Positions 1-48,416 of a DNA stretch of 64,000 nt are shown here, in pieces. How positions within the stretch are numbered: the stretch's first letter is position 1; each line of letters begins with the position of its first letter. The DNA lies in IMG/VR virus record IMGVR_UViG_3300047322_000252, positions 1 to 64,000 of that record, one strand, 5' to 3'. The DNA comes from a virus. The translations under genes were made by a program, and so were the position numbers. Below the pieces are notes generated by a model. That model was not told the DNA's origin and did not search any database. It saw nothing but the letters and a program-made list of their open reading frames with translations.

Positions 1-23
1 TCTTCTCGGACCCGAACTGGCGA

Positions 24-641
24 TTGCCGGACTATGCGCAGCCATCGGCGCTGCCTTCATTCGACTCACTCATCGACGTGCCAACCCCTGACAAGGAAGA
101 TCCCCATGCCCTCTGGAAGCCTCCCCCTCCCTCCCGCCCTGCCCAAGTGGATGACCCGCAGCCCCAAGAGCCAGCCGAACCGTGGCCTGGCCTTGGCTGG
201 CGCCGTGGGCGCCCTGGTGGTCACCCTCGTAGCACGGTCATTCAGGTGACCGGGCACCAGTACCCACCGCCCCCGCCTGCTCCTGAGGCACCACCGGAGA
301 CGATGCACATCAACGACCTGACCCTGTCCGAGCAGTTGGACCACGTCCCCTGGTTCCACATCTACGTGCCCGATGACTACTTGGAGACGTCCGGCATCTA
401 CATGCTGACCAAGCGCCAGGCCCGTAAGCGGGACAAGGCCAAGGCCAAGGCCCGCAAGCTGCGCAACCCTCGCCTCGCACGTCGCCGCAACCGGCGTCAG
501 ATCATCACCTTCGTGATCTTCTTCATCGTCGTCCTTGGAGTCATCTTCAAGCTGCCCGAGGACCCGTTCAACAAGCACCCGGCGCCACCTTCCGGTCCCG
601 CCATCACGCAGCCCGCTACTGTGACAACAGTCACACCATAG
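24..641 (+). CDS. Pro-rich hypothetical membrane protein (start uncertain)
   Basis: Basic stretch followed by one hydrophobic helix (IITFVIFFIVVLGVIF). Confidence 0.55.
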   Translation: MPDYAQPSALPSFDSLIDVPTPDKEDPHALWKPPPPSRPAQVDDPQPQEPAEPWPGLGWRRGRPGGHPRSTVIQVTGHQYPPPPPAPEAPPETMHINDLTLSEQLDHVPWFHIYVPDDYLETSGIYMLTKRQARKRDKAKAKARKLRNPRLARRRNRRQIITFVIFFIVVLGVIFKLPEDPFNKHPAPPSGPAITQPATVTTVTP

Positions 642-653
642 GGGGCCTTGGAG

Positions 654-1120
654 ATGACCGAACTGCACCGCTACCACGAGGTCTGGATCAACGTGGCCCG
701 AGCCACCAGGGCCGAGCGAGGCAACCGTCCGTCCCAGGTCACGCTCACCTTCGACAATGACCTGGCCGTGGCTGAGTTCCTAGAGAGCATCTGCACCGGC
801 CACGAGCTTGTGGGCGGTGGAGTGCGCCACCAGGAAGGGCTGCACTGCCCTGTACACCCATGAGGGTGGACCGTGATGGCCTGGGCCTGGGCGTGTTCGC
901 CACGCTCGCCTGCGGTGGCCTGTATGTGTGCTACGACGCTGCCGGTCGAGTGGACAGGCCCACGGCGCTGGTAGCCATGGGCGTGTTCCTGGTGATGGCG
1001 GTGCTGGCCTGTCACTTCCTGCTCAACCTCATGGACCGCTTCGACAAGTGGCGTGAGCAGGCCATTGACACTGACAGCGAAGATGAGTCGAAAGACCTAG
1101 AAGATGCGGTTGTGTTCTAA
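654..1120 (+). CDS. Two small hypothetical genes (654-863; 860-1120, two predicted TM helices)
   Basis: GGAG before ATG654; ATGA overlap at 860; hydrophobic segments. Confidence 0.6.
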
Positions 1121-1146
1121 CAACACACTCGCTACTATTCATACTC
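1087..1146 (+). promoter_or_regulatory. Composite early promoter P1 (leaderless)
   Basis: CGAA..CCTA at 1089, box GTTCTAACAAC 1114-1124, -10 TACTAT 1133-1138, ATG at 1147. Confidence 0.75.
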
Positions 1147-1728
1147 ATGAGCACCGACTACGAGTACACCCTCCCCCGAGAGGTCGCTGTCCCTGAGTGG
1201 CCTGAGCGGGTCAAGAACGTCACCATGACCGTCGTCTACCCCAAGGTGACCGGCCGACTGGAACTGTGCGCCATGGACACCGATGACGTGTTCGTGGAAG
1301 GCGACCTGACCTACCGGGGGCACGGCTACCGGATCAAGTTCATCCACACCAACGACCAGGGCCAGCCCAAGGGCTACTGGTACGCCCGCAATGAGGCCGA
1401 GCGTGCCGCCAAGGGCGACAGCAACAGCCAGGTCTACGGCGTGATCCCCCAGGACGGCACCGTGGACTTCGAGCTTGCCCGGGCCATGGGCGATGCCCCC
1501 AAGACCTTCGTGCGTCCCCTGCTGGACGCCGTGGCCGACACGGTGCTGCGGTACCTGTGCTACGAGCCGACCAAGACCCACGCCGCCGAGGCCCGCAAGG
1601 CCAGTCTCGTCCAGAACCTCAACCGCAAGGCCGAGGCGTACAACCGTCTCGCCAAGGGTGCCGAGGCTGCCCTGGCCGAGTACGAGGCGGCGCTGGCCGC
1701 TGTCGAGAGCATCGAGGGGGTGAAATGA
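1147..1728 (+). CDS. Hypothetical protein with C-terminal coiled coil
   Basis: 193-aa ORF with typical codon usage directly after P1. Confidence 0.8.
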   Translation: MSTDYEYTLPREVAVPEWPERVKNVTMTVVYPKVTGRLELCAMDTDDVFVEGDLTYRGHGYRIKFIHTNDQGQPKGYWYARNEAERAAKGDSNSQVYGVIPQDGTVDFELARAMGDAPKTFVRPLLDAVADTVLRYLCYEPTKTHAAEARKASLVQNLNRKAEAYNRLAKGAEAALAEYEAALAAVESIEGVK

Positions 1729-1922
1729 CAGACCTCCCTCCCCCCGCACCCAAGTGGTACGAGAAGCACGAGAACATCGTGATCCTCGCCACGTGGATGG
1801 CCGACCAGGGCAACACCGCTCACACCGTGGTGGACGCCATCGAGACGCCGTGGAGCTACGAGGACGAGTTCAACCTCGCCCTCGCTGCCCTGGCCGAGCA
1901 GGAACCGGCCGAGCAGGCCTGA
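1725..1922 (+). CDS. Hypothetical protein
   Basis: GAGGGG RBS, ATGA overlap, MTDLPPPAPKWYEKH... Confidence 0.7.
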   Translation: MTDLPPPAPKWYEKHENIVILATWMADQGNTAHTVVDAIETPWSYEDEFNLALAALAEQEPAEQA

Positions 1923-1983
1923 TGTGACAACAGTCACTGCTGCCTGACGTTGTGAGAACACAACGATCCGGTACCATTGACAT

Positions 1984-2139
1984 TGACAGCGGGGTGGTGC
2001 GAAAGTAAGCCTCCCCAAGGCAGTACCCCATCGACCCGGTTGTGGCCGGGCTACGAGAGGGGAGTGGAGCGGTCCGACGTATCGCCTGGCTCATCCCAGG
2101 CAGAGTAGGCAAGGTCGGCACACTGCCCCGCTGTCACCA
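1984..2139 (+). ncRNA. Candidate structured RNA 1 (about 155 nt)
   Basis: 16-bp closing stem 1984-1999/2121-2136 with 2 G-U pairs; internal stems CTCCCC/GGGGAG, CCCGGT/GCCGGG, CCGAC/GTCGG, GCCTGG/CCAGGC; -10 TACCAT at 1972; ends ACCA. Confidence 0.7.
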
Positions 2140-2165
2140 ACACCCCTGACCGAGAAAGGCCCACC

Positions 2166-2786
2166 GTGGCACAGACCCAGCACATCAAGAGCGCCCGCAA
2201 GACCAAGGACGGCGACCGGCCCACGTGTCACACGTGCCACAAGCCCATCGAGGTCGGCCAGGGCTACTACAAGAACAGCCCGAGCCGGTTCTCTGCCACG
2301 TACTCCTGGCACGAGGGCTGCCCCGGACCCAGGGCCAGCACCCTGGAATCCAACGAGAAGCGTGGCGCTGCCTACGCTGCCTGCGAGGACGCCGACGACG
2401 CCGTGGAGGCCATCGATGGCGTCCTGGACATTCGAGATGGCGGCGAGCCGGTCGAGGTCACCATCGAGGCCCGAGTCAAGTACGTGATGGAGTGCCTGGG
2501 CGATGCGTTCACCGTCCTGGGCGACGGCATCCAAGAGGCCGCTGAGATGTGGCGTGAGAGCGCCAGCAACATCGAGGAAGGCTTCGGTCACGAGACTGAG
2601 CGCTCCCAGGAGATGAACGACCACGCCGACGTCTACGACGACGCCGCCAGCGAGGCCAGTGACAACCTGCTGGACCAGATCACCGAGTGGGACCCCGACG
2701 CCGAGATGGACTTCGATGAGTGGCTGGACCAGGCCAAGGCCGAGGCCCACGACGCCATCGATGGCGTGTACGGGATGATCGACTGA
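2166..2786 (+). CDS. Hypothetical protein, N-terminal Zn-binding motif and acidic helical C-terminus
   Basis: GAAAGG RBS; CHTC...HEGC; 206 aa. Confidence 0.8.
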   Translation: MAQTQHIKSARKTKDGDRPTCHTCHKPIEVGQGYYKNSPSRFSATYSWHEGCPGPRASTLESNEKRGAAYAACEDADDAVEAIDGVLDIRDGGEPVEVTIEARVKYVMECLGDAFTVLGDGIQEAAEMWRESASNIEEGFGHETERSQEMNDHADVYDDAASEASDNLLDQITEWDPDAEMDFDEWLDQAKAEAHDAIDGVYGMID

Positions 2787-2787
2787 C

Positions 2788-3661
2788 ATGAGCACCACCT
2801 ACCCCTGCCTCTTGCCCACCGTGCCCGCCAGCCGCTGGTACTTCAACATCACCCGCATCACCGGCACGGCCACCAAGGTCAACGAGATGAACGAGCCGGT
2901 GATCTACTGCTCAGTCGAGGCCGACAGCGTCGAGGGAGCCGAGCGTCACGCCCTGGCCTGCCTGCACCACGACTACGAGGACAACCTGGAAGGTGCCCAA
3001 GCCAGCGCCTCCCAGGCCGGTGGTGGCTACTTCGTCACCGTTCGGTTGAGGCCGTACCTGTGATGGGCGCTCCCGATCGTCGTGACCCACGCAACAACCC
3101 CGAGGACGCCTACCAGGCGTTCATGAACATGCCCAACAGCGAGTGGAACGGGCTGATCGCCAGTCTGTTCCACGGTGGCGTGCTCACCCCGGCCGAGCAG
3201 GAGGGCTTCGACCGTGCGATCAAGAACCGTGCGGCGCTGAATGGGCCGAACGGCCTAGACCCTGACGTGGTTGTTGTCAGAACGTCTGATACACTGTTGT
3301 CAGAACAACAGCGAGAGGACACCCCTGACATGGACGAGGAAGCAACCTGGATCGTCTCCATCGAGCGTCCGGACGGCACCACGTTCGTCTGGCAGGTGCA
3401 GGACATGGACCTATACGCCAGCATCGTCGGCGCCATCATCGACCTGACCGGCCACACGGCCGACGTGGTGGGTGCGTGATGGACGACACCACCGATCCCC
3501 GCTCACCTGGTGAGCGCCCCCGCAAGAACCAGTGCCAGATCAACGGCCTGGACGTGCGTGACATGGGCGACCGCCAGCTACTGCGTGAGCTACGCAAGCC
3601 CTGGGGACCCAACCTCATGGACATGATCCGAGCCGAGGCCCGGTGGCGCAACCTGGTGTGA
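2788..3661 (+). CDS. Small hypothetical genes (2788-3063; 3060-3479 with probable internal start at 3330; 3476-3661)
   Basis: Overlapping start/stop codons; internal promoter at 3247-3295 and GAGAGG RBS before ATG3330. Confidence 0.6.
3245..3306 (+). promoter_or_regulatory. Composite early promoter inside ORF 3060-3479
   Basis: CGAA..CCTA at 3247, GTTGTCAGAAC at 3273, -10 TACACT at 3290, second GTTGTCAGAAC at 3296. Confidence 0.65.
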
Positions 3662-3757
3662 ACGCTCACACCATTGACACTGACAGGCCGAATGGCCTAT
3701 GTCACTCCTGGTGGTGGCGTTGTACCCTCATGACTGAACCCTAAGAAAGGGGACTGC

Positions 3758-4381
3758 ATGAGACGACGCACCACCGTTGGGGCGATCATGTTGGTGGCGG
3801 GCTTTGGCCTCGTTGGTGGTGCTGCGTTCATGGGCACCGCTGGTGCTACTGGCAACGTGGAGCACTGCACCGATGGCAATGGGCAGGACGGGGTCAACAA
3901 CCCGCACTGCACCACGGACGACAGCACCCCGCCGTCGTCCACGCCGGACAGCACCCCACCGTCGAGCACCGTGGACAGCAGCGTGCCGGACAGCACGCCG
4001 CCCTCGTCCACGCCTCCACCCTCCGACAGTGTCCCCCCGCCCGACTCGTCGGTGCCGCCGCCTGACAGCAGCGTGCCACCGCCTGACTCATCGGTCCCGC
4101 CCACCACGCCGCCTTCGGTGGTGGACACCACGGTGCCCCCCAGCATCGTGACGACCGTGCCCCCGAGCGTGGTGACCACGCCAGCGCCTACCCCCACCAC
4201 GGCGCCAGCACCGGACACCACGCCCGCCCCGGCTGCCCCAACGACCCCGCCCGGATCGTTGCCCAGCACCGGCTCCACCACCCTCCCCCTCCTGCTTGGC
4301 TCCCTTGGCGCCCTGTTGGCCGGTGGTGGACTGATCGTCCTGACCAGGCGGAATGAGGTCGGGACAGCGCTCGCAGCGTAG
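3758..4381 (+). CDS. Secreted Pro/Ser/Thr-rich protein with LPXTG-type sorting signal
   Basis: N-terminal signal peptide; PDS(S/T)(V/T)PP repeats; LPSTG, hydrophobic helix and RR tail. Confidence 0.85.
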   Translation: MRRRTTVGAIMLVAGFGLVGGAAFMGTAGATGNVEHCTDGNGQDGVNNPHCTTDDSTPPSSTPDSTPPSSTVDSSVPDSTPPSSTPPPSDSVPPPDSSVPPPDSSVPPPDSSVPPTTPPSVVDTTVPPSIVTTVPPSVVTTPAPTPTTAPAPDTTPAPAAPTTPPGSLPSTGSTTLPLLLGSLGALLAGGGLIVLTRRNEVGTALAA

Positions 4382-4407
4382 GCGGATCGCTCTGCGAGCA
4401 ACACACG

Positions 4408-4441
4408 GCGCCCCTGGTCACAGCGACCAGGGGCGCTTTGT
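4408..4441 (+). terminator. Intrinsic terminator
   Basis: 12-bp stem GCGCCCCTGGTC/GACCAGGGGCGC followed by TTTGT. Confidence 0.8.
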
Positions 4442-4447
4442 AATATA

Positions 4448-4499
4448 GTCCGAATGACCTACGAAATCCGGTTGTGTTCTGACAACAGTTCGCTATACT
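4448..4499 (+). promoter_or_regulatory. Composite early promoter P2
   Basis: CGAA..CCTA at 4451, GTTCTGACAAC at 4476, -10 TATACT at 4494. Confidence 0.8.
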
Positions 4500-4526
4500 G
4501 ATCCTTGTAAGCAACGCAGCACCTTG

Positions 4527-4774
4527 ACAACTGAGCCGGGACCCACGAAGCACCATGCAAGTACCCCGATGAAAGCGCCCTGACGGTTAACGACCACGTC
4601 TGGCCCATGCGAATCAGCGCTACGGCCAGCGATCCCTGAACGAAGGCGTGTGGAGGGCGAAATCCGCCGTGAGAGAAGTGGGAGAACAGCCCGAACGAAA
4701 GCCGAGAGTATCCCCGGAGTGCGCACGATGGGGGGAGGGTAGGTGGACAAGTAGGACTGGCCCGGCTCAGTTGT
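4527..4774 (+). ncRNA. Candidate structured RNA 2 (about 250 nt, raiA-motif-like words)
   Basis: Perfect 14-bp closing stem ACAACTGAGCCGGG/CCCGGCTCAGTTGT; internal stems CTGGCC/GGCCAG and CGCCCT/AGGGCG; purine-rich linkers; no credible ORF; directly after P2. Confidence 0.75.
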
Positions 4775-4809
4775 GAGAGTGTTGTGAGAACCTGAAAGGA
4801 CCCTGACCC

Positions 4810-5556
4810 ATGAGCAATCCCAAGAACCTGCAAGAACTGGCCGACAGCCTGGCCGAGCAAGCCCGCACCATTCGCCAGTCTGGTCCTGGCACCTACGCCG
4901 ACAGCTTCCAGCGGGCGGGCTATGCCGATGCCCTGTTGGACACGAGGGCCACGGTCCTCGCCATGATCGCTGAGCAGCGGCCCAAGGGTCTGCACAAGGC
5001 CAGCCCTGATCCCGACTACGCCCACCTGTGCATCCATTGCATGCTGAACATCAAGCACCTGCCTGCGGGCCAGGGCTGGGTCCACGAGGGCACCGGCATG
5101 GTGGTCGGTGACGGTCCTGCTGACGTGTGCCCCGAGTGTGACTGCCCGATTGACGACCATCACGAGGCCTGTTCACGCCTCATCGGTGGCGACGAGGTCA
5201 ACAACGCCAGCCCTGCCGTGGTGGCTGCCATGAACGAGGCCCTGGTGCGCTACCAGTACCAGGTGCTGGTCGATGGCACGCCCATGCAGCACGGCCCGTT
5301 CGACCCCACGAGTGCCCACCACCCACGCAGCGCTGCTGCTACGTACCAGGAAATCAACCCCGAGGCCACGGTGGTCATCCAGTACCGGGACAACGAGGGC
5401 GATGGCGTGTGGACCACCAATGAGCCGAAAGGCTCAGTTCTGATGCACTGCCACGATCCTCGTCACGATGAGCCGTGCCCCTTGCCTTGTGCTGCGTGCG
5501 AGGACGAGTGCGACCCGGCCTTCGCACGCAATGAGCCGAATGGCCTACCGGCCTGA
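4810..5556 (+). CDS. Hypothetical multi-module Cys/His-rich protein
   Basis: GAAAGGA RBS; several CxxC/H motifs. Confidence 0.75.
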   Translation: MSNPKNLQELADSLAEQARTIRQSGPGTYADSFQRAGYADALLDTRATVLAMIAEQRPKGLHKASPDPDYAHLCIHCMLNIKHLPAGQGWVHEGTGMVVGDGPADVCPECDCPIDDHHEACSRLIGGDEVNNASPAVVAAMNEALVRYQYQVLVDGTPMQHGPFDPTSAHHPRSAAATYQEINPEATVVIQYRDNEGDGVWTTNEPKGSVLMHCHDPRHDEPCPLPCAACEDECDPAFARNEPNGLPA

Positions 5557-5593
5557 CGTGTGTTGTGACAACACATCAGGTACACTGACTCCC
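5535..5593 (+). promoter_or_regulatory. Composite early promoter P3 (leaderless)
   Basis: CGAA..CCTA at 5537, GTTGTGACAAC at 5562, -10 TACACT at 5581, ATG at 5594. Confidence 0.78.
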
Positions 5594-6991
5594 ATGAGCA
5601 GATACACCACCCCTGGCCCCTGGTCCTGCATCAAGCGGACCAACATCACCGGCTTCTACGGCTCCCGCATCGGCGCCGTCCAGATCGAGACAGGCCCCCT
5701 CGTGGATGGTCGCAACGGCCAGCGCTACGAGGATGGCGCCCACAAGGTCACCGTCACCAAGAGGCCCGAGGCCTGCACTGGTGGCTGGCCCCGAGGCAAG
5801 ACGTTCAAGGGCGAGACGGCCTGGTCCAGCGCTGAGCGCTACCGGGACGACTGCGTCCACATGATGGAGAAGTACGCACGAGAGGAAGGCCTGTGATGGC
5901 CCGCACACCCCGCCATAGCCCCTACGACCCGCAGTTCGCTGACAAGCCCGACCACGTGAGCGACAACACCTTCGACCTGGTCGGCAACATCATCGCCTTC
6001 GAGAATGGCGAACTGGACGAGGACGAGTGCATCGCTTTCTTCCAGCACCTGGTCAACACTGGCCTGGCCTGGTCCCTGCAAGGCACCTACGGCCGCACGG
6101 CCATGGCCCTGATCGAGGCCGGGCTGGTGACACGATGACCACGCCCTGGCAAGACGATCGCACGGTCGGCACCATCAACATCGGCCATGTCAATGTCAGT
6201 GACCTGCTGAGCAAGCTGGTCGAGTTCTCGCTGCGCTACGGCGCCGACCTGGACCTGTACATCGATGGCAACAACCTGGTCATCTTCGCCCCCCGGGGCG
6301 CCGCCACTCAGCCCCTCCCTTTGGAGGAACGCCGAGAGGTCGGCATGCACTGGCTGGCTGACATTCTTGGAAGGATCACACGATGAGCACCTTGGAGGTC
6401 CACCACGACGAGGAAGTGGGCACCGTGCTGGTGGTCCAGCGCTACCAGCGTGCCCGAGTCGCATACCAGTGTGATGCGTGCATCACAGGCGGTCCCATCG
6501 TCAAGGGTGAGGTCTACCGCTACGTTTGGAGCATGTTGGAGGGCGACAGCCTGGTCCAGCGGTTCCACGCCGGGTGCGTCTAGTGCCCCGCCTGCGCCTC
6601 TTGGAGCCTCTTGGAGCGCCTTTGGAGCTATCGGCGCCCCGGAGGCCCAAGCTGGCCCAGGTGGCCGCTCAGTGCCCCTTCTGCCGTGGTGCTGGCTACC
6701 TGTACGGCCGAGTGCTGTGCCCCACGTGCGAGGGCGCTGGTGTCGCCTAAGACGTCCAGCGGGTGGTTCGGCCTGGCGTGCTTCAACGCCCTGAGCCACG
6801 AGCAGCAGCGCATGCTGATCGAGGACGGCGTGCTGCCGTTCGGCCGCAAGTGGCCCGAGGGCGCCGGGTGCGAGCGTGGTGCGAGCGTGGCGATCGAGGT
6901 CGAGGGCGACGAGGCACCAGGGCCACGCTTCTACTGCGTGCCGTGCGGCATCGAGTACCTGCGCACCGTCACCATTGACACTGACACGTGA
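5594..6991 (+). CDS. Operon of six small genes (5594-5896, 5893-6138, 6135-6386, 6383-6583, 6583-6750 with CxxCxGxG Zn finger, 6740-6991)
   Basis: Chain of overlapping ORFs; 5893-6138 carries a common phage motif (ENGEL..LVNTGLAWSLQGTYGR). Confidence 0.7.
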
Positions 6992-7040
6992 CCGTTGTCA
7001 CAACACGCTCCGTGGTCGATACCTCACACCGTTGTGAATG

Positions 7041-7100
7041 GTCCGAAATACCTACGAGTATGACGACTGTTCTGACAACAACGGGACTAGACTCGCTGGT
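7041..7100 (+). promoter_or_regulatory. Composite early promoter P4 (leaderless)
   Basis: CGAA..CCTA at 7044, GTTCTGACAAC at 7069, -10 TAGACT at 7088, ATG at 7101. Confidence 0.78.
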
Positions 7101-7871
7101 ATGACCAGCAAGCCCGCCTCCGAGAGGCAGTACGCCTACCTGACCACCCTGCTGAACGAGCGTGACCCGGCCGTGACCGGCGTCCCCGACGTCGCAGCCT
7201 TCATCCAGTCCCTGCGGGACAACGGCGCCACCAGCGCCCAGGTGTCGGCCATCATCAAGGCCGTCCTGGCCCTGCCTAAGGCCGCTGCGCCTGCCGGTGC
7301 TGCCCCTGCGGGCCGGACCAACAACTACGGCGCCAAGTGCGTCAAGTGCGGCGTCTACGTGCCTGCCGGTGCTGGCGTCATCACCAAGAACAGCGCTGGC
7401 AAGTGGGACACCACCCACGTCCAGCCCTGCCCCGAGGTCGAGGCCAAGCTGCCCACGCCTGACGTGAGCACCCTGACCGAGGGTGTCTACGTGGACGAGG
7501 ACGGCACCGTGTGGAAGGTCTACACCGGCCGTCAGTCGGGGCGCCTGCAAGCTGCCACGCTCACCAACCACGGCGACCACGGCACCTTCGAGTTCGTGCG
7601 TGGTGGCCTGCGCATGGTGGCCGATGCCCTCGTGGCCCGGACCATGCGCCTGCTCACCCAGGACGAGGCCGCTGCGTTCGGGCGCCTGAACGGCTTCTGC
7701 TGCAACTGCGGCCTGGCGATCGAGGACGATCGCAGCGTGGCTGCCGGGTACGGACCCAAGTGCGCCACCAACCTGGGCTGGTGGTACCCCACCTACGAGG
7801 AAGCCGCCGCCATCCTGGGGCGCCCTGTCACCAAGCCTTCCGGCGTGGTGGTCCAGCCCCCCGCTGCGTGA
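7101..7871 (+). CDS. Zn-finger protein with C-terminal DUF6011-like domain
   Basis: CCNCGLAIEDDRSVAAGYGPKCA fits the recalled CxxCG..L.D..S...G.GP.C pattern; second CVKC motif. Confidence 0.75.
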   Translation: MTSKPASERQYAYLTTLLNERDPAVTGVPDVAAFIQSLRDNGATSAQVSAIIKAVLALPKAAAPAGAAPAGRTNNYGAKCVKCGVYVPAGAGVITKNSAGKWDTTHVQPCPEVEAKLPTPDVSTLTEGVYVDEDGTVWKVYTGRQSGRLQAATLTNHGDHGTFEFVRGGLRMVADALVARTMRLLTQDEAAAFGRLNGFCCNCGLAIEDDRSVAAGYGPKCATNLGWWYPTYEEAAAILGRPVTKPSGVVVQPPAA

Positions 7872-7883
7872 CCGTTGTCACAA

Positions 7884-7944
7884 CAGGGATAGGGCCGAAA
7901 GGCCCATCCCTGAGTGTGTGTTCTGACAACACGCCCGATAGACT
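7884..7944 (+). promoter_or_regulatory. Hairpin overlapping composite early promoter P5
   Basis: CAGGGAT-A-GGGCC GAAA GGCCC-ATCCCTG hairpin; CGAA at 7896, GTTCTGACAAC at 7920, -10 TAGACT at 7939. Confidence 0.7.
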
Positions 7945-7982
7945 GACGCTTGCCAGTCACCCACCGAGAGGAACCCCTGACC

Positions 7983-9206
7983 ATGCCCACGCACCGCACG
8001 CCCCCCACGCCCATCCGGCGCCACCTGAGCCGCCAGCACACGAACACCGTGGCTGCCAACGCCGTCATCTCGCAGGCGTTCTTCCCCGGCATGGGCTGGT
8101 CGAACCTGACCCACCTGCCCCTGCCCACCCGTAGCGCCATCTGCGTGCTGCGTGACCGGGGCGCCACCATGCTCGCCGTGAGCTACGCCAAGCCTCACAC
8201 CCGTAACCGGGTGACGGCTGACTTCACCGTGGCCGAGTGCCTGGTGGCGTCATGAGCACCGTCCGGCACCCCAACCACGTGGTGATGGCGACCGGCTCCG
8301 AGGTCATCCACGCCGCCTCTGACGTGGCCCTGGCCCAGCGCCGCCACGTCCTGGCCTGCAACGGTCGAGCCATCCAAGGCGGTGCCTGGGATGACGTTGT
8401 GACCAAGGTCACCTGCAAGGCCTGCCTCCGGGCGCTCGCCTCCGGGCGGGCCGTGTGGATCGGGCGTGCGTCATGATCCACGCCCTTTCCGCCGATGCCA
8501 CCTTCCCCGCCATGGTGGTGACCGTCACCTGTGAGGACGGCGCCATCAGGCACGCACCCTTCGCCAGCATGGCCGAGGCCCGCACCTGGGCCGAGTGGGG
8601 TCACTGCTGCACCAACCGCCACCGCTTCACGAGTCACCAGGAGAACCCGTCATGACCACCACCAACAACTGCCCCGTCTGCGGGACCGAGGTCACCGTGT
8701 GGGCCGACCTGTCGGGCGGGATCACCGTCAACTTCCGGTGCCCGAACGAGGCCTGCCCGGCAGGCAAGGCACCGTGGGACACGCCCGAGCCGGGCGTGGA
8801 CTACGAGCCATCGGTCTGCATGAACTGCGGCGAGGACGAGCACACGGCCGAGGAACTGGCCGAGTGCATCGACTCAGTGACCAATCCCTGGCCCGGCATC
8901 GAGCGCAACGTGCCGGTCACCCCGGCCCTGCGGCGCCGGTTCGTCTCCCGTAACTGGTGCTTCGGCTACAACGGCCACAGCATCTACCAGCTTGGCACCC
9001 TGCCTGCGGACCTGTACGCCGTGACCTGGGACCGGGATCACAACCCGGTGATCACCGGCCGCATCAAGGGCGCCAGCACACAGAGCACCGCCGACCTGAT
9101 CGCTTTCCTCTCCGAGTGGGAAGGCTGAGCGATGACGGACGAGCAGCGGGCCGCTGTGTACTTCCTCGTGATCAACCGGGGCGAGGAAGGGGACGACGAC
9201 GAGTAG
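7983..9206 (+). CDS. Operon of small genes (7983-8255, 8252-8476, 8473-8655, 8652-9128, 9132-9206)
   Basis: GAGAGGA RBS; ATGA overlaps; Cys motifs. Confidence 0.7.
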
Positions 9207-9463: not shown

Positions 9464-9549
9464 TTACGTGTGTGAATCTCGTCACACTAGGCCACAATAC
9501 CTAGTGTTCTGACAACAGAAAGGGCCTCTGACCAGCTATTATGTCTCTC

Positions 9550-11100
9550 ATGAGCAACGCACCCATCACCCCTGACAGCCCCCTGGCGGGCCTGTTCGCC
9601 CAGGTCGTCGGCACCGCTGCCGTCGTCGCCGCCACCAACAACCTGGCCCCGGTCCTGTCGTTCGACACCCTGGCCCTCCCCCTCATGGCCCACCAGGTCG
9701 AGGCCGTCCAGCGCATCCACCACGACGTCGCCACCTACGGCGGGAGCTACGTGGGCGATGACATGGGCCTTGGCAAGACGTTTGAGGCCCTAGCGGCTGT
9801 TGCCCTGGCCCCGAACAGCTACCCGGCCCTGATCATCTGCCCGCCCTCTGTCACGCTGAACTGGCGCAACGAGGCCCGCCGCCTGATCCCCGGCGTCCGG
9901 GTCGAGGTGCTGAGTGGCACCAAGCCGGTGCTGCCTGCGCCCGCCGACATCTACGTCATGGGCGACAGTGTGCTCGCCGCATGGGCTGGCCTGGCGGTCG
10001 AGAACTACGTGGACAACCGGGACGTGCCCCGCAAGCGTGACGTCGTCCGGGGCGTGCTCACCGCCATGGGCATCCGGGCGCTGGTGGTGGACGAGGCCCA
10101 CCGCTTCAAGTCCTACAAGGCCCAGCGGGCACGTGCGGCCATGGCGTTCGCCGCCACCCTGCCCCGGGGCGCCCAGCGCATCCTGCTGAGCGGCACCGCC
10201 GTGGACAACCGCTCCGAGGAACTGGCGACGCAGATCCGCATCGCTGGCGTGGATCACGTGTTCGGCGGCTGGTTCAACTTCCTGGAAACGTACGCACCCA
10301 AGCAGGGCTATGCCCGGGTGAGCCGTCACAGTGACGAGCTTCACGCCAAGCTGGTGAGCACCTTCTACCTGCGCCGCCTGCGCACCGAGGTCCTGAGCCT
10401 GCCCGGCAAGGGGCGCAAGCTGGTGGCTGCGGCCATGGCCGGTAAGGCTGCCAGTGACTACCTCGCCGCCCAGGACGATCTCATCGCCTACGTGCGGGGG
10501 ACCAAGGGCCGCAAGGCTGCCGAGGTCGCCAGTCGGGCCGAGGCCCTGGTCCTGCTGACCACCCTGCGCCGCCTGGTCGGTGAGGCCAAGGTGGCTGCCG
10601 TGGTCGCCTACGTCCAGGACCTGGTGGACGACGGGGAGCAGGTGTTCGTGGCTGCCTGGCATGCGCCCATGGTCAAGGCCCTGACTGACGCCTTCGGCGC
10701 CGTGAACGTGGTCGGCGGTATGAAGGTCGAGGACAAGCAGGCGGCGGTCGAGGCGTTCCAGAACGGCACCGCCCGGGTGCTGGTGGGCAACATCGTGGCC
10801 GCTGGTGTGGGCATCACGCTCACCGCTGCCCGCCACGTAGTGGTGGCAGAACTGCCGTGGACGCCGGGAGCGCTGGCCCAGGTCGAGGACCGGCTGGACC
10901 GTATCGGCCAGACACGTGAGGTCGTCTCCCACATCATGCTGGGGACGAACGGCATCCCCACGGTGGACGAGCGCATCATGGCGATCCTCAACGAGAAGGC
11001 GGCAGTCACCGGCATGATCATGGACGGCAAGGCTGCCAGCATCATCGATGACGACACGATCAGCGCCGCCCTGCTGGACAGCTACCGGGACGCCGCCTAG
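9550..11100 (+). CDS. SNF2-family (SF2) DNA helicase/translocase
   Basis: DDMGLGKT, DEAH, LSGT, GVGITL, QVEDRLDRIGQ motifs; -10 TATTAT before a leaderless ATG. Confidence 0.93.
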   Translation: MSNAPITPDSPLAGLFAQVVGTAAVVAATNNLAPVLSFDTLALPLMAHQVEAVQRIHHDVATYGGSYVGDDMGLGKTFEALAAVALAPNSYPALIICPPSVTLNWRNEARRLIPGVRVEVLSGTKPVLPAPADIYVMGDSVLAAWAGLAVENYVDNRDVPRKRDVVRGVLTAMGIRALVVDEAHRFKSYKAQRARAAMAFAATLPRGAQRILLSGTAVDNRSEELATQIRIAGVDHVFGGWFNFLETYAPKQGYARVSRHSDELHAKLVSTFYLRRLRTEVLSLPGKGRKLVAAAMAGKAASDYLAAQDDLIAYVRGTKGRKAAEVASRAEALVLLTTLRRLVGEAKVAAVVAYVQDLVDDGEQVFVAAWHAPMVKALTDAFGAVNVVGGMKVEDKQAAVEAFQNGTARVLVGNIVAAGVGITLTAARHVVVAELPWTPGALAQVEDRLDRIGQTREVVSHIMLGTNGIPTVDERIMAILNEKAAVTGMIMDGKAASIIDDDTISAALLDSYRDAA

Positions 11101-11210: not shown

Positions 11211-11739
11211 GTGACACCAGGCGAGCCTAATCGGCGCCCATGGGATGCCCACGGCATGAGGCAGAGTGATCAAGTGCATGCCCTGTCTCACCGTCACCCC
11301 CTCCCCTACTGCCTAGCTATGTCAGGCAGTGACACATGCCACACCCCTCCCACCCTAGTGAGCGTGGCGTAGCCACTCTCCCCTCTGCCTGTCGTGCCTG
11401 CTCATGCCCCTATGGGCATGACCTAGATCAACCCTGGCCCCGGTTGTCAAGGCAGTTGTGACAACAGCCTGCCTTGACATACGCCCTCACCTGTGAAACA
11501 CCAGGTCACAGACCTGTTGTGATAACTGTCACACCACATGTGCCTCATGGCACATGTGTTGACAACATGCCCTGACCTGCGGCTACGCCGCCTGTCAAGG
11601 GCTGTGAATCATGTCACACCCCTGTGACATTAATCACCCTGACCGGGCTGCGCCCGGGCTAGGACTCCCATGTGCAAGGGGGGTTTCCCGGGGGACTCGT
11701 GTAGTGGTATATGCACTCGTGTGTGGTACAATGTGGTGC
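11211..11739. other. Long palindrome-rich non-coding control region
   Basis: No credible ORF; inverted repeats at 11445-11479, 11535-11558, 11611-11630; clustered GTTGTGACAAC-type boxes. Confidence 0.65.
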
Positions 11740-12057
11740 ATGAGCGTGAACACCTCCATACGCCTGCCTCTGGACTTGAAGGAGCGGCTACAGGCTGCTG
11801 CTGACGAAGAGGGCAGGAGCCTGAACAACTACATGATCCGCATCCTCCAAGAAGCCTCGAACCTCAGGGAGGGCCATTCGACCCTTGGCAGTTCCCCTGC
11901 CCCCGATAGTATGAAGGGTATGTCCCGAGCGGTGCCGTCGAAGAGAGCGTCCAAGAGGGCCACGGCCCATCAACGGCTGGTGCAGGAGCGGGATGAAGCC
12001 GCTCGCCAGGAGATCAAGAACCGGGTCCTGGGCCAGAGAGAGGGAGGGCCGTCATGA
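11740..12057 (+). CDS. Arc/HicB-like ribbon-helix-helix DNA-binding protein
   Basis: TSIRLPLDLKERLQAAADEEGRSLNNYMIRIL; -10 TACAAT, leaderless. Confidence 0.85.
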   Translation: MSVNTSIRLPLDLKERLQAAADEEGRSLNNYMIRILQEASNLREGHSTLGSSPAPDSMKGMSRAVPSKRASKRATAHQRLVQERDEAARQEIKNRVLGQREGGPS

Positions 12058-31336: not shown

Positions 31337-31410
31337 CGGGGTGTAGATCAGTTGGTTAGATCGCAGGTCTGGGGGACCTGAGGGCGTGGGTTCGAGTCCC
31401 ACCACCCCGA
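31337..31410 (+). tRNA. tRNA-Pro(GGG), CCA not encoded
   Basis: Full cloverleaf: CGGGGTG/CACCCCG, GATC/GATC, CAGGT-CTGGGGG-ACCTG, GTGGG-TTCGAGT-CCCAC. Confidence 0.93.
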
Positions 31411-31431
31411 CTAAGGTTCCGAATCAGGTAC

Positions 31432-31505
31432 GGGGCCATAGCTCAGCCAGGTAGAGCGCCGCCATGGCATGGCGGATGTCAGGGGTTCAACTCCCCTTGG
31501 CTCCA
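31432..31505 (+). tRNA. tRNA-Ala(GGC), CCA not encoded
   Basis: Full cloverleaf: GGGGCCA/TGGCTCC with G3-U70, GCTC/GAGC, CCGCC-ATGGCAT-GGCGG, AGGGG-TTCAACT-CCCCT. Confidence 0.95.
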
Positions 31506-31507
31506 CG

Positions 31508-48032: not shown

Positions 48033-48416
48033 ATGGTGGTGCCCTCGAACCACGTCTACGTGAAGGGTGGCGGCGAACTTGTTGACGCTCTCCTGGATGT
48101 GGTGGAACGGGCAGCGACTGTTGTCACACAGTCGGCCCAAGAGGCGATCGAGGACCAGCACTCCCGGATGCAGGCGGCAGCGGCGCAGGACCCCCGGTGG
48201 GCCACCATGGCCCCGGACATCCAGTACTGGGCTGACGAGGACGGGGACCTGGCCTATGGCGTGCCCTGGCACAACCGCAGCTACGAGCAGGCGGTGCGGG
48301 TCGAGTACGGCGACACCGTGGACGCTCCCATCCCGCTCATCCGCATGGGCGTGCTCAACGGGGTGACCCAGATGGGCTGGTCCATGCGCCAGGCGTTCAT
48401 GGAGAACGGGTTCTGA
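48033..48416 (+). CDS. Putative tail completion protein
   Basis: Position; VEYG motif. Confidence 0.55.
   Translation: MVVPSNHVYVKGGGELVDALLDVVERAATVVTQSAQEAIEDQHSRMQAAAAQDPRWATMAPDIQYWADEDGDLAYGVPWHNRSYEQAVRVEYGDTVDAPIPLIRMGVLNGVTQMGWSMRQAFMENGF

Follow-up and report, generated by a model that had tools for sequence, protein, structure and literature searches.

RNA 1, a candidate structured 5' leader at the head of an early operon in a large soil phage

Structured elements near the 5' ends of transcripts have been described in several bacterial and phage systems, and those closest to the element considered here, which is called RNA 1, fall into a few kinds. Small 5'-terminal stem-loops are said to stabilise mRNAs, as in the ompA leader of E. 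coli and the aprE and ermC leaders of B. subtilis. RNase III processing sites are reportedly found in phage early transcripts, including the R-sites of T7 and the N leader of lambda. In a canonical RNase III site the duplex is nearly continuous over about two helical turns and often contains a defined internal loop, and a helix of 15-16 bp is short for such a site. The put RNAs of phage HK022 are said to be promoter-proximal, cis-acting antitermination RNAs with two stems, a length of about 70 nt and known contacts with RNA polymerase. Among bacterial Y RNAs, YrlA is described as adjoining a Ro60 gene and as carrying a module that resembles a tRNA, in which there are 'D' and 'T' arms and a GNCGAAN0-1G motif, Ro60-encoding mycobacteriophages being included among its carriers (PMC4201824).

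RNA 1 lies upstream of an early gene of a phage genome, and its ends pair into a long helix that closes a branched domain. By analogy with the leaders named above, the explanation that we prefer, with a confidence that stands about level with doubt, is that RNA 1 may be a structured 5' leader which buries the 5' end of its mRNA, as a stabiliser or as a processing site. The evidence for this explanation, and for the alternatives to it, is presented below.

Genome setting and predicted promoter

The window, by which the whole 64,000-nt stretch analysed is meant, comprises positions 1-64000, at the left end, of a virus record of 118,220 bp that is rated complete, has 127-bp direct terminal repeats and contains 64.8% G+C. 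The large terminase shares 45-47% identity with its counterparts in Streptomyces phages of 112-116 kb, BRock and LuckySocke among them, and the source is a large soil phage. Its left genome end consists of a series of small + strand genes without assigned function. RNA 1 occupies a 243-nt gap in this series, between a 65-codon gene that ends at 1922 and a gene at 2166-2786 (gene 2166), and all neighbouring genes lie on the + strand. The sequence features of the gap and of the gene that follows it are listed here in order.

1923-1937, + strand: copy of motif C, TGTGACAACAGTCAC, a 15-mer with a small GTGAC/GTCAC hairpin, directly after the stop codon of the upstream gene
1949-1964, + strand: motif D, GTTGTGAGAACACAAC, a near-palindromic 16-mer, interpreted as operator or -35 region in a class of early promoters
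1972-1977, + strand: -10-like hexamer TACCAT, proposed from the spacing to motif D that is common to other copies
1975-1989, + strand: copy of motif A, CATTGACATTGACAG, at about -10 to +5 of the predicted promoter
1985, + strand: predicted transcription start, the 8th base after the -10 hexamer
1985-1999, + strand: 5' arm of the closing helix, pairing with 2121-2135
2009-2021, + strand: hairpin A, GCCU/CCCCA/AGGC, in MFE and centroid folds
2026-2062, + strand: hairpin B, CCCC...GGGG around CCCGGU/UGUG/GCCGGG, in MFE and centroid folds
2084-2101, + strand: hairpin C, GCCUGG/CUCAUC/CCAGGC, with a 6-nt loop, in MFE and centroid folds
2121-2135, + strand: 3' arm of the closing helix; its two wobbles become C-A mismatches on the - strand
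2136-2142, + strand: ACCAACA, the start of a C/A-rich single-stranded spacer, which includes 'ACCA'
2143-2159, + strand: CCCCTGACCGAGAA, a conserved segment of the leader that includes the ribosome-binding site GAAAGG at 2154-2159 and recurs, no more than 70 nt from the start codon, in 6 of 33 homologous loci
2166-2786, + strand: gene 2166, 206 aa, with a GTG start confirmed by homologues and a CxxC...C motif near the N terminus

A coding role for RNA 1 was considered and ruled out. The open reading frames that overlap it have G+C contents by codon position of 0.52/0.66/0.70 and 0.60/0.70/0.58, compared with 0.65/0.43/0.89 in the flanking genes, and since they lack this codon-position pattern the region is taken to be non-coding. 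The stretch is present in 24 sequencing runs, all listed as DNA; all 24 carry every sampled word and therefore offer no natural variation.

Motif D (GTTGTGWNNNNACAAC) has seven matches at up to three mismatches in the window, against 0.35 expected, and copies lie at 1109-1124, 1949-1964, 4471-4486, 5562-5577, 7915-7930 and 9501-9516, with a further one at genome positions 109745-109760. A TANNNT hexamer lies 7-8 nt downstream of five copies, namely those at 1109 (TACTAT), 1949 (TACCAT), 4471 (TATACT), 7915 (TAGACT) and, on the - strand, 109745 (TACACT); a TANNNT hexamer also accompanies the copies at 5562 and 9501, at different distances. Both of these units look leaderless, since an ATG begins with the 8th base beyond their hexamer, and at 1109 the ATG follows the hexamer as the 9th base. 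At least three motif D transcription units look leaderless, their ATGs being at 1147, about 5606 and 9541. Motif D together with the TANNNT hexamer is likely to represent an early-promoter class. When the 8-base spacing of the leaderless genes is applied to TACCAT it leads to G1985, and for this reason transcription is predicted to start at the first base of the helix; as an exact position, G1985 is a prediction from spacing. A strict sigma-70 consensus scan returned no promoter in 1-8000, and no + strand terminator-like site was found in the same interval.

The other two repeated words in the gap recur elsewhere in the genome. Motif C has seven matches at up to two mismatches in the window, against 0.20 expected, with copies of TGTGACAACAGTCAC at 620-634, 1923-1937, 6988-7002, 7868-7882 and 48114-48128, usually at or just after stop codons. 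Motif A (CATTGACAYTGACAG) has 20 copies at up to two mismatches in the window, against 0.33 expected, and 35 in the genome; they include those at window positions 1063, 1975, 3672, 6973, 11138, 13150 and 17832, often just past gene ends. The copy at 1975-1989 overlaps the 5' arm of RNA 1, in agreement with the original prediction that motif A overlaps its start. Terminator hairpins directly follow three copies (17832, 65968 and 116693). A general module of motif A followed by a hairpin was considered and rejected on the folding energies of the 50 nt downstream (35 copies against 1500 random sites, Mann-Whitney p 0.65). No clear orientation rule was seen either, the copies agreeing with the nearest crudely called gene in 20 of 35 cases.

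A separate feature of this early region is a Pro/Ser/Thr-rich protein encoded at 3758-4381, whose N terminus resembles a signal sequence and which has an LPXTG motif for cell-wall anchoring (PF00746, 20.2 bits with the cut-off at 20, E 5.7e-4). An LPXTG-bearing protein is unusual cargo in a phage early region.

The closing helix and the fold of RNA 1

The closing helix consists of 15 contiguous pairs, from G1985-C2135 through G1999-C2121, two of which are wobbles (U1995-G2125 and G1996-U2124); U1984-A2136 forms a 16th pair. The 15-bp stem with G1985-C2135 at its end and ACCA at 2136-2139 behind it, which the original prediction had described, is thus present in the sequence. Closing helix and hairpins A-C are kept in the MFE and centroid folds of 155-, 194- and 306-nt contexts. 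Dinucleotide shuffling of the 243-nt gap gave at least 16 contiguous pairs in none of 1000 shuffles and at least 14 in two, and genome-wide only four helices of at least 16 pairs within 320 nt were found on the + strand and three on the - strand. The closing helix is real and exceeds chance expectation for its gap.

The overall fold energy of RNA 1 is unexceptional against the genome background and in wider windows. When the window for folding is cut exactly at the helix ends, the + strand reaches -75.5 kcal/mol with a z of -3.27 (0 of 200 shuffles), and the - strand folds less well (-71.6, z -2.33). In wider contexts z is only -1.56 for 1972-2165 (13 of 200 shuffles) and -1.50 for 1985-2290, a 306-nt transcript. 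Among 2436 random-phase 155-nt windows of the same genome, 50 have a G+C-adjusted energy equal to or lower than that of RNA 1.

These values bear on the possibility that RNA 1 has no dedicated function, the helix and hairpins being the product of a G+C-rich 243-nt spacer or an insertion remnant in which only the promoter and the ribosome site matter. This possibility is a serious one, although on balance we doubt it. The 50 genome windows that fold equally well and the modest z in wider contexts are what it would lead one to expect; three of the four + strand helices of at least 16 pairs fall inside genes, so that such helices evidently arise without an RNA role; no conservation of RNA 1 was found in the searches described below; and selection applies, as RNA 1 was picked out of many scanned gaps. 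It fits less well with the absence of 16 pairs from all 1000 shuffles of the gap, or with a helix that starts within one base of the predicted start site. Further, both non-Watson-Crick positions of the helix are G-U on the + strand, the transcribed one, and the domain exactly fills the space from the predicted +1 to a conserved, ancestral segment of the leader.

The genome survey of fold energies also drew attention to two regions away from RNA 1. The most stable + strand 155-nt windows after G+C adjustment are at genome positions 64409-64563 (z -4.66) and 11447-11601 (z -3.58), mostly within gaps by a rough gene call (64411-64550 and 11298-11828), and are possible further structured RNAs or terminators.

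The long terminal helix followed by ACCA suggests a tRNA-like reading, in which these four bases would be a discriminator plus CCA. ARAGORN, however, reported only tRNA-Pro and tRNA-Ala at 31337-31506 and no tRNA or tmRNA at RNA 1. A search against Rfam, which reportedly includes a YrlA model, likewise returned only tRNA-Pro and tRNA-Ala at the gathering score, and at E<=10 it gave three chance-level matches in 1800-2400, with no tRNA (RF00005) or tmRNA (RF00023) among them. The hairpin GCCTGG/CTCATC/CCAGGC with CAT in its loop is at 2084-2101 as described; its loop has 6 bases against the 7 of an anticodon loop. The absence of a T-loop is confirmed, in that no GTTCRA-type T-loop occurs in 1985-2139 and the ARAGORN tRNAs lie only at 31.3-31.5 kb. 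The ACCA itself belongs to a C/A-rich spacer, ACCAACACCCC, and C/A-rich spacers also precede gene 2166 homologues in other contigs, which bears out the earlier caution that the ACCA may be chance.

The ends-paired, branched shape of RNA 1 also resembles Y RNAs, and a retron msr-msd was a further candidate. The whole 118-kb genome was searched for a Ro60 (TROVE, PF05731) protein and for a reverse transcriptase (PF00078), and neither was found, the controls being positive in both cases; Pfam and PADLOC gave no match of the reverse transcriptase kind for gene 2166 either. The Y-RNA reading is removed by the absence of the TROVE protein from the genome and the retron reading by the absence of reverse transcriptase. 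RNA 1 is not tRNA-like. A tRNA-like, Y-RNA-like or retron-like RNA with a functional acceptor-like helix and ACCA is extremely improbable, and this group of readings is largely refuted.

Homologous loci, RNA 2 and the search for relatives

Gene 2166 has 26 protein matches at E<=0.001, including that of the window itself, and hence 25 homologues; alignment with 22 of them begins at residue 1 and confirms the GTG start, and the closer ones (P0002-P0006) are 64-73% identical. The protein has no match in PHROG or PADLOC, and in Pfam only a sub-threshold match to DUF7692. A search with gene 2166 alone found no viral locus, and the DNA of 1700-2400 had no match in the phage collection. Homologous loci were collected through a 23-protein alignment, which gave 80 metagenome and 28 viral loci (best identity 46%); the contigs that encode P0002-P0006 were not among them. 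Inspection covered 33 upstream regions with a protein match that began no later than residue 8.

None of the 33 upstream regions contains an RNA 1-like domain or a long structured leader. In six of them the sequence CCC..GACCGARR is retained just before the ribosome site, corresponding to 2143-2156 of the window; there it lies 22-30 nt after a -10-like hexamer, compared with 165 nt in the window. Because six loci keep this segment behind a short leader and none has the domain, RNA 1 looks like a lineage-specific insertion of about 151 nt, apparently placed between the start site and an ancestral short leader.

An insertion bounded by an inverted repeat might also function as DNA, either as a miniature inverted-repeat insertion whose terminal inverted repeats would be the 15-bp arms or as an inverted repeat that binds a protein, with no RNA role. 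The inverted repeat does bound RNA 1 exactly, the element is missing from all 33 homologous loci inspected, and motif A, a repeated DNA word, overlaps one end. RNA 1 is, however, single-copy in its genome, with no copy in about 950 kb of other phage loci and no flanking direct repeat seen, and both arm mismatches are G-U on the transcribed strand. A purely DNA-level element is accordingly a very unlikely explanation.

Relatives of RNA 1 were sought with a covariance model built from its sequence alone. The model found nothing convincing in 321,465 + 357,606 + 257,346 + 16,000 bases of related loci, no relative in five whole phage records that carry RNA 2 homologues and no second copy elsewhere in its own genome. 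The 33 orthologous upstream regions and the covariance-model searches yielded no homologue with compensatory base changes. RNA 1 is an orphan without conservation or covariation support.

RNA 2, with which the original prediction had linked RNA 1, is located at 4507-4786 of the window (+ strand), behind the motif D copy at 4471 and in the same layout as RNA 1. The words said to be common to the two, AGTACCCC (2022-2029) and AGTAGG (2105-2110), are indeed present, but their frequency is at chance level. The two RNAs have in common one 8-mer, two 7-mers and seventeen 6-mers; when 3000 random 280-nt windows of the genome were compared with RNA 1, one or more common 8-mers were seen in 67%, two or more 7-mers in 94% and seventeen or more 6-mers in 51%. 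An 18-sequence profile of the RNA 2 family (nhmmer) recovered RNA 2 at E 2.6e-53, and RNA 1 was absent among its 18 matches at E<=100. Profiles of the 5' and 3' segments of RNA 2 gave nothing overlapping 1960-2160 among 104 and 129 matches, respectively, at E<=1000. RNA 1 is thus not a detectable member of the RNA 2 family, since both the family profile and the profiles of its ends miss it, and with the common words at chance level the proposed kinship does not hold.

The RNA 2 family was characterised alongside these comparisons. It is an actinophage family of about 250-400 nt matched by no Rfam model, with loci in L002, L003, L004, L007, L008, L012-L048 and L203. Starting from 41 viral stretches found by a core pattern, with the window and phage Dandelion added, and four non-members or truncated copies and four duplicates removed, 35 distinct members were obtained. 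The invariant core consists of CUGACGGYUAACGACCAC and CCCUGAAYGAA, the closing helix has 25-40 bp, and the consensus fold of the 18-sequence alignment has compensatory changes in 45 of 53 pairs. About 200 records of cluster C mycobacteriophages have a match to the core, with 86-92% identity; in phage Dandelion it falls between genes 70 and 71, in a gap without annotation. In bacterial genome contigs only one full-length copy was seen, in an Acidimicrobiales MAG. In other phages, many helices of the RNA 2 family have as their outer 5' arm the word CAYTGACAACTGAA, which is related to motif A.

One hairpin loop of the family (window 4712-4738; columns 253-280 of alignment A1) contains a self-complementary 6-10-mer in all 18 aligned members, if three 8-mers that include one G-U are counted. 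The loop word varies and its palindromy is kept, as in GUGCGCAC, GUGGCCAC, GCUGCAGC, GUUGCAAC, GGUGCAUC, GACGUC and GUGCAC. Such a palindromic loop is the signature expected of a loop-loop (kissing) homodimer, which the sequences would predict for RNA 2. T-arm-like sequences (GGTTCGAAYCC type) occur a few hundred bases past the RNA 2 homologues in L012/L046, L022 and L033, and L022 has an Rfam tmRNA match at 10219-10301 (57.7 bits), about 1.2 kb from its RNA 2 homologue; the family may tend to sit in clusters of RNA genes. In the parts of the literature consulted no description of an RNA 2-like element in these phages was found, and the family may be included in a catalogue of candidate motifs for viruses and phages (PMC10690425). 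RNA 2 represents a genuine, widespread family of phage RNAs absent from Rfam, which merits its own study and looks to be of far greater interest than RNA 1.

Among full-length matches, the RNA 1 model scored highest for an element in one of the RNA 2-bearing phages, at L025:7236-7369 (11.7 bits, E 2.8, or E 0.11 when only two loci were searched). It ends 10 nt upstream of that phage's RNA 2 homologue (7379-7636). The surrounding stretch, 7183-7672 of an 86.8-kb viral contig, holds a -10-like hexamer, the 134-nt closed-helix element, the RNA 2 member and a terminator-like hairpin, with no ORF between them, and appears to be a purely non-coding two-RNA unit. The L025 element folds with a z of -4.98. 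The sequence of its closing helix is unrelated to that of RNA 1, and ahead of the 3' arm the two agree at about 35 of 49 aligned positions, the common stretch being TCGCCTGG-6 nt-CCAG.CAG.G..TAGGC.AGG. It is also the top blastn match for RNA 1 among 615,071 bases of loci (E 0.079). No nhmmer match between the two was obtained, and in the reciprocal test a model of the L025 element missed RNA 1 on the + strand among 74 matches at E<=10 with filters off; this model also found no relatives in 41 loci that carry or flank RNA 2 family matches. A scan of viral contigs for the 3' motif common to both gave 31 stretches, and besides L025 none of the 30 new loci was RNA 1-like under the model. The L025 element is thus a weak, one-way match, a lead and not support for RNA 1.

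The L025 arrangement is what chiefly speaks for a stand-alone non-coding RNA of about 150 nt, cleaved out near 2136-2140 and acting in trans, possibly with the RNA 2 family. The position of the L025 element beside an RNA 2 homologue between promoter-like and terminator-like signals, its good fold and its place at the head of the blastn matches would suit such an RNA. The covariance-model match is not significant, however, and the reciprocal model neither finds RNA 1 nor has relatives of its own; at RNA 1 itself no terminator follows and no feature defines a 3' end at 2139. We regard a stand-alone RNA as unlikely. More unlikely still is a second class of small RNAs, acting together with the RNA 2 family, to which RNA 1 and L025:7236-7369 would both belong as diverged members; large actinophages would then have an early module of two RNAs, set free by processing at the long terminal helices. 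If it were true, L025 would have both RNAs head-to-tail in one unit, while in the present genome each heads its own early operon behind the same promoter type.

The leader reading and its place among known systems

Of the two roles originally suggested for RNA 1, that of a structured leader of gene 2166 is the one favoured here. From the promoter class, transcription is predicted to begin with the first base of the helix; downstream come a ribosome site and start codon and no terminator-like site. The suggestion of a trans-acting RNA found no support. As a leader, RNA 1 would form the first 151 nt of a 181-nt 5' untranslated region of an early operon that starts with gene 2166. Transcription would proceed from about G1985 by way of motif D, a 7-nt spacer and TACCAT, and the 5' end would pair with 2121-2135 and so close the three-hairpin domain. 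A C/A-rich single strand of 30 nt with the ribosome-binding site would be left free before GTG 2166. The domain would be an insertion into an otherwise short leader, and its ACCA would be incidental.

The ribosome site (2154-2159) begins 18 nt past the closing helix and GTG 2166 follows 30 nt past it; the site is not sequestered by the domain, and because it lies outside no regulatory switch is evident. What the long helix would most likely do is to hide the 5' end, with the result that the mRNA may be protected from 5'-end-dependent RNases, or else to offer a site for double-strand-specific processing. The domain might also punctuate read-through transcripts that come from the upstream genes. 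This stabilising or processing role is proposed by analogy with known leaders.

If the leader reading is true, this phage has put a self-closing RNA domain of 151 nt exactly between a transcription start and an ancestral short leader. The locus would then provide a compact natural test case for the effect of 5'-end burial on mRNA life and translation in high-G+C hosts. The value of the results for RNA 1 itself is mainly negative, in that it is neither tRNA-like nor kin to RNA 2, and RNA 1 is of modest interest.

Among the systems with which RNA 1 may be compared, bacterial Y RNAs such as YrlA are also found in large actinophages and likewise have ends that pair into a long stem closing a branched domain; RNA 1 differs in having no tRNA-like module, no TROVE protein in its genome and no Rfam family match. 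With the HK022 put RNAs it has in common a structured RNA immediately downstream of a phage early promoter, a predicted one in the case of RNA 1, put acting on its own transcript, but there is no sign of antitermination at RNA 1 and no terminator downstream of it. The RNA 2 family has the same promoter class, a helix that starts near the predicted start and a gene directly after the 3' arm, and a 5' arm beginning with TTGACA is a further point of likeness. It differs in its conserved core, closing helices of 25-40 bp and strong covariation, whereas RNA 1 has no such core and is missed by the family profile.

The RNase III sites resemble RNA 1 as structured elements that lie between early cistrons or in an early phage leader and that would also be contained in upstream read-through transcripts; the helix of RNA 1 differs in its 15-16 bp and in the large branched domain that it encloses. 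The 5'-terminal stem-loop stabilisers resemble it in that the helix takes in the first transcribed bases, which for RNA 1 are predicted ones, and is followed by a single-stranded ribosome-binding region, with no terminator and with the gene directly downstream. These stabilisers are small local hairpins, whereas RNA 1 has a long-range helix of 15-16 bp that closes a three-hairpin domain of 151 nt.
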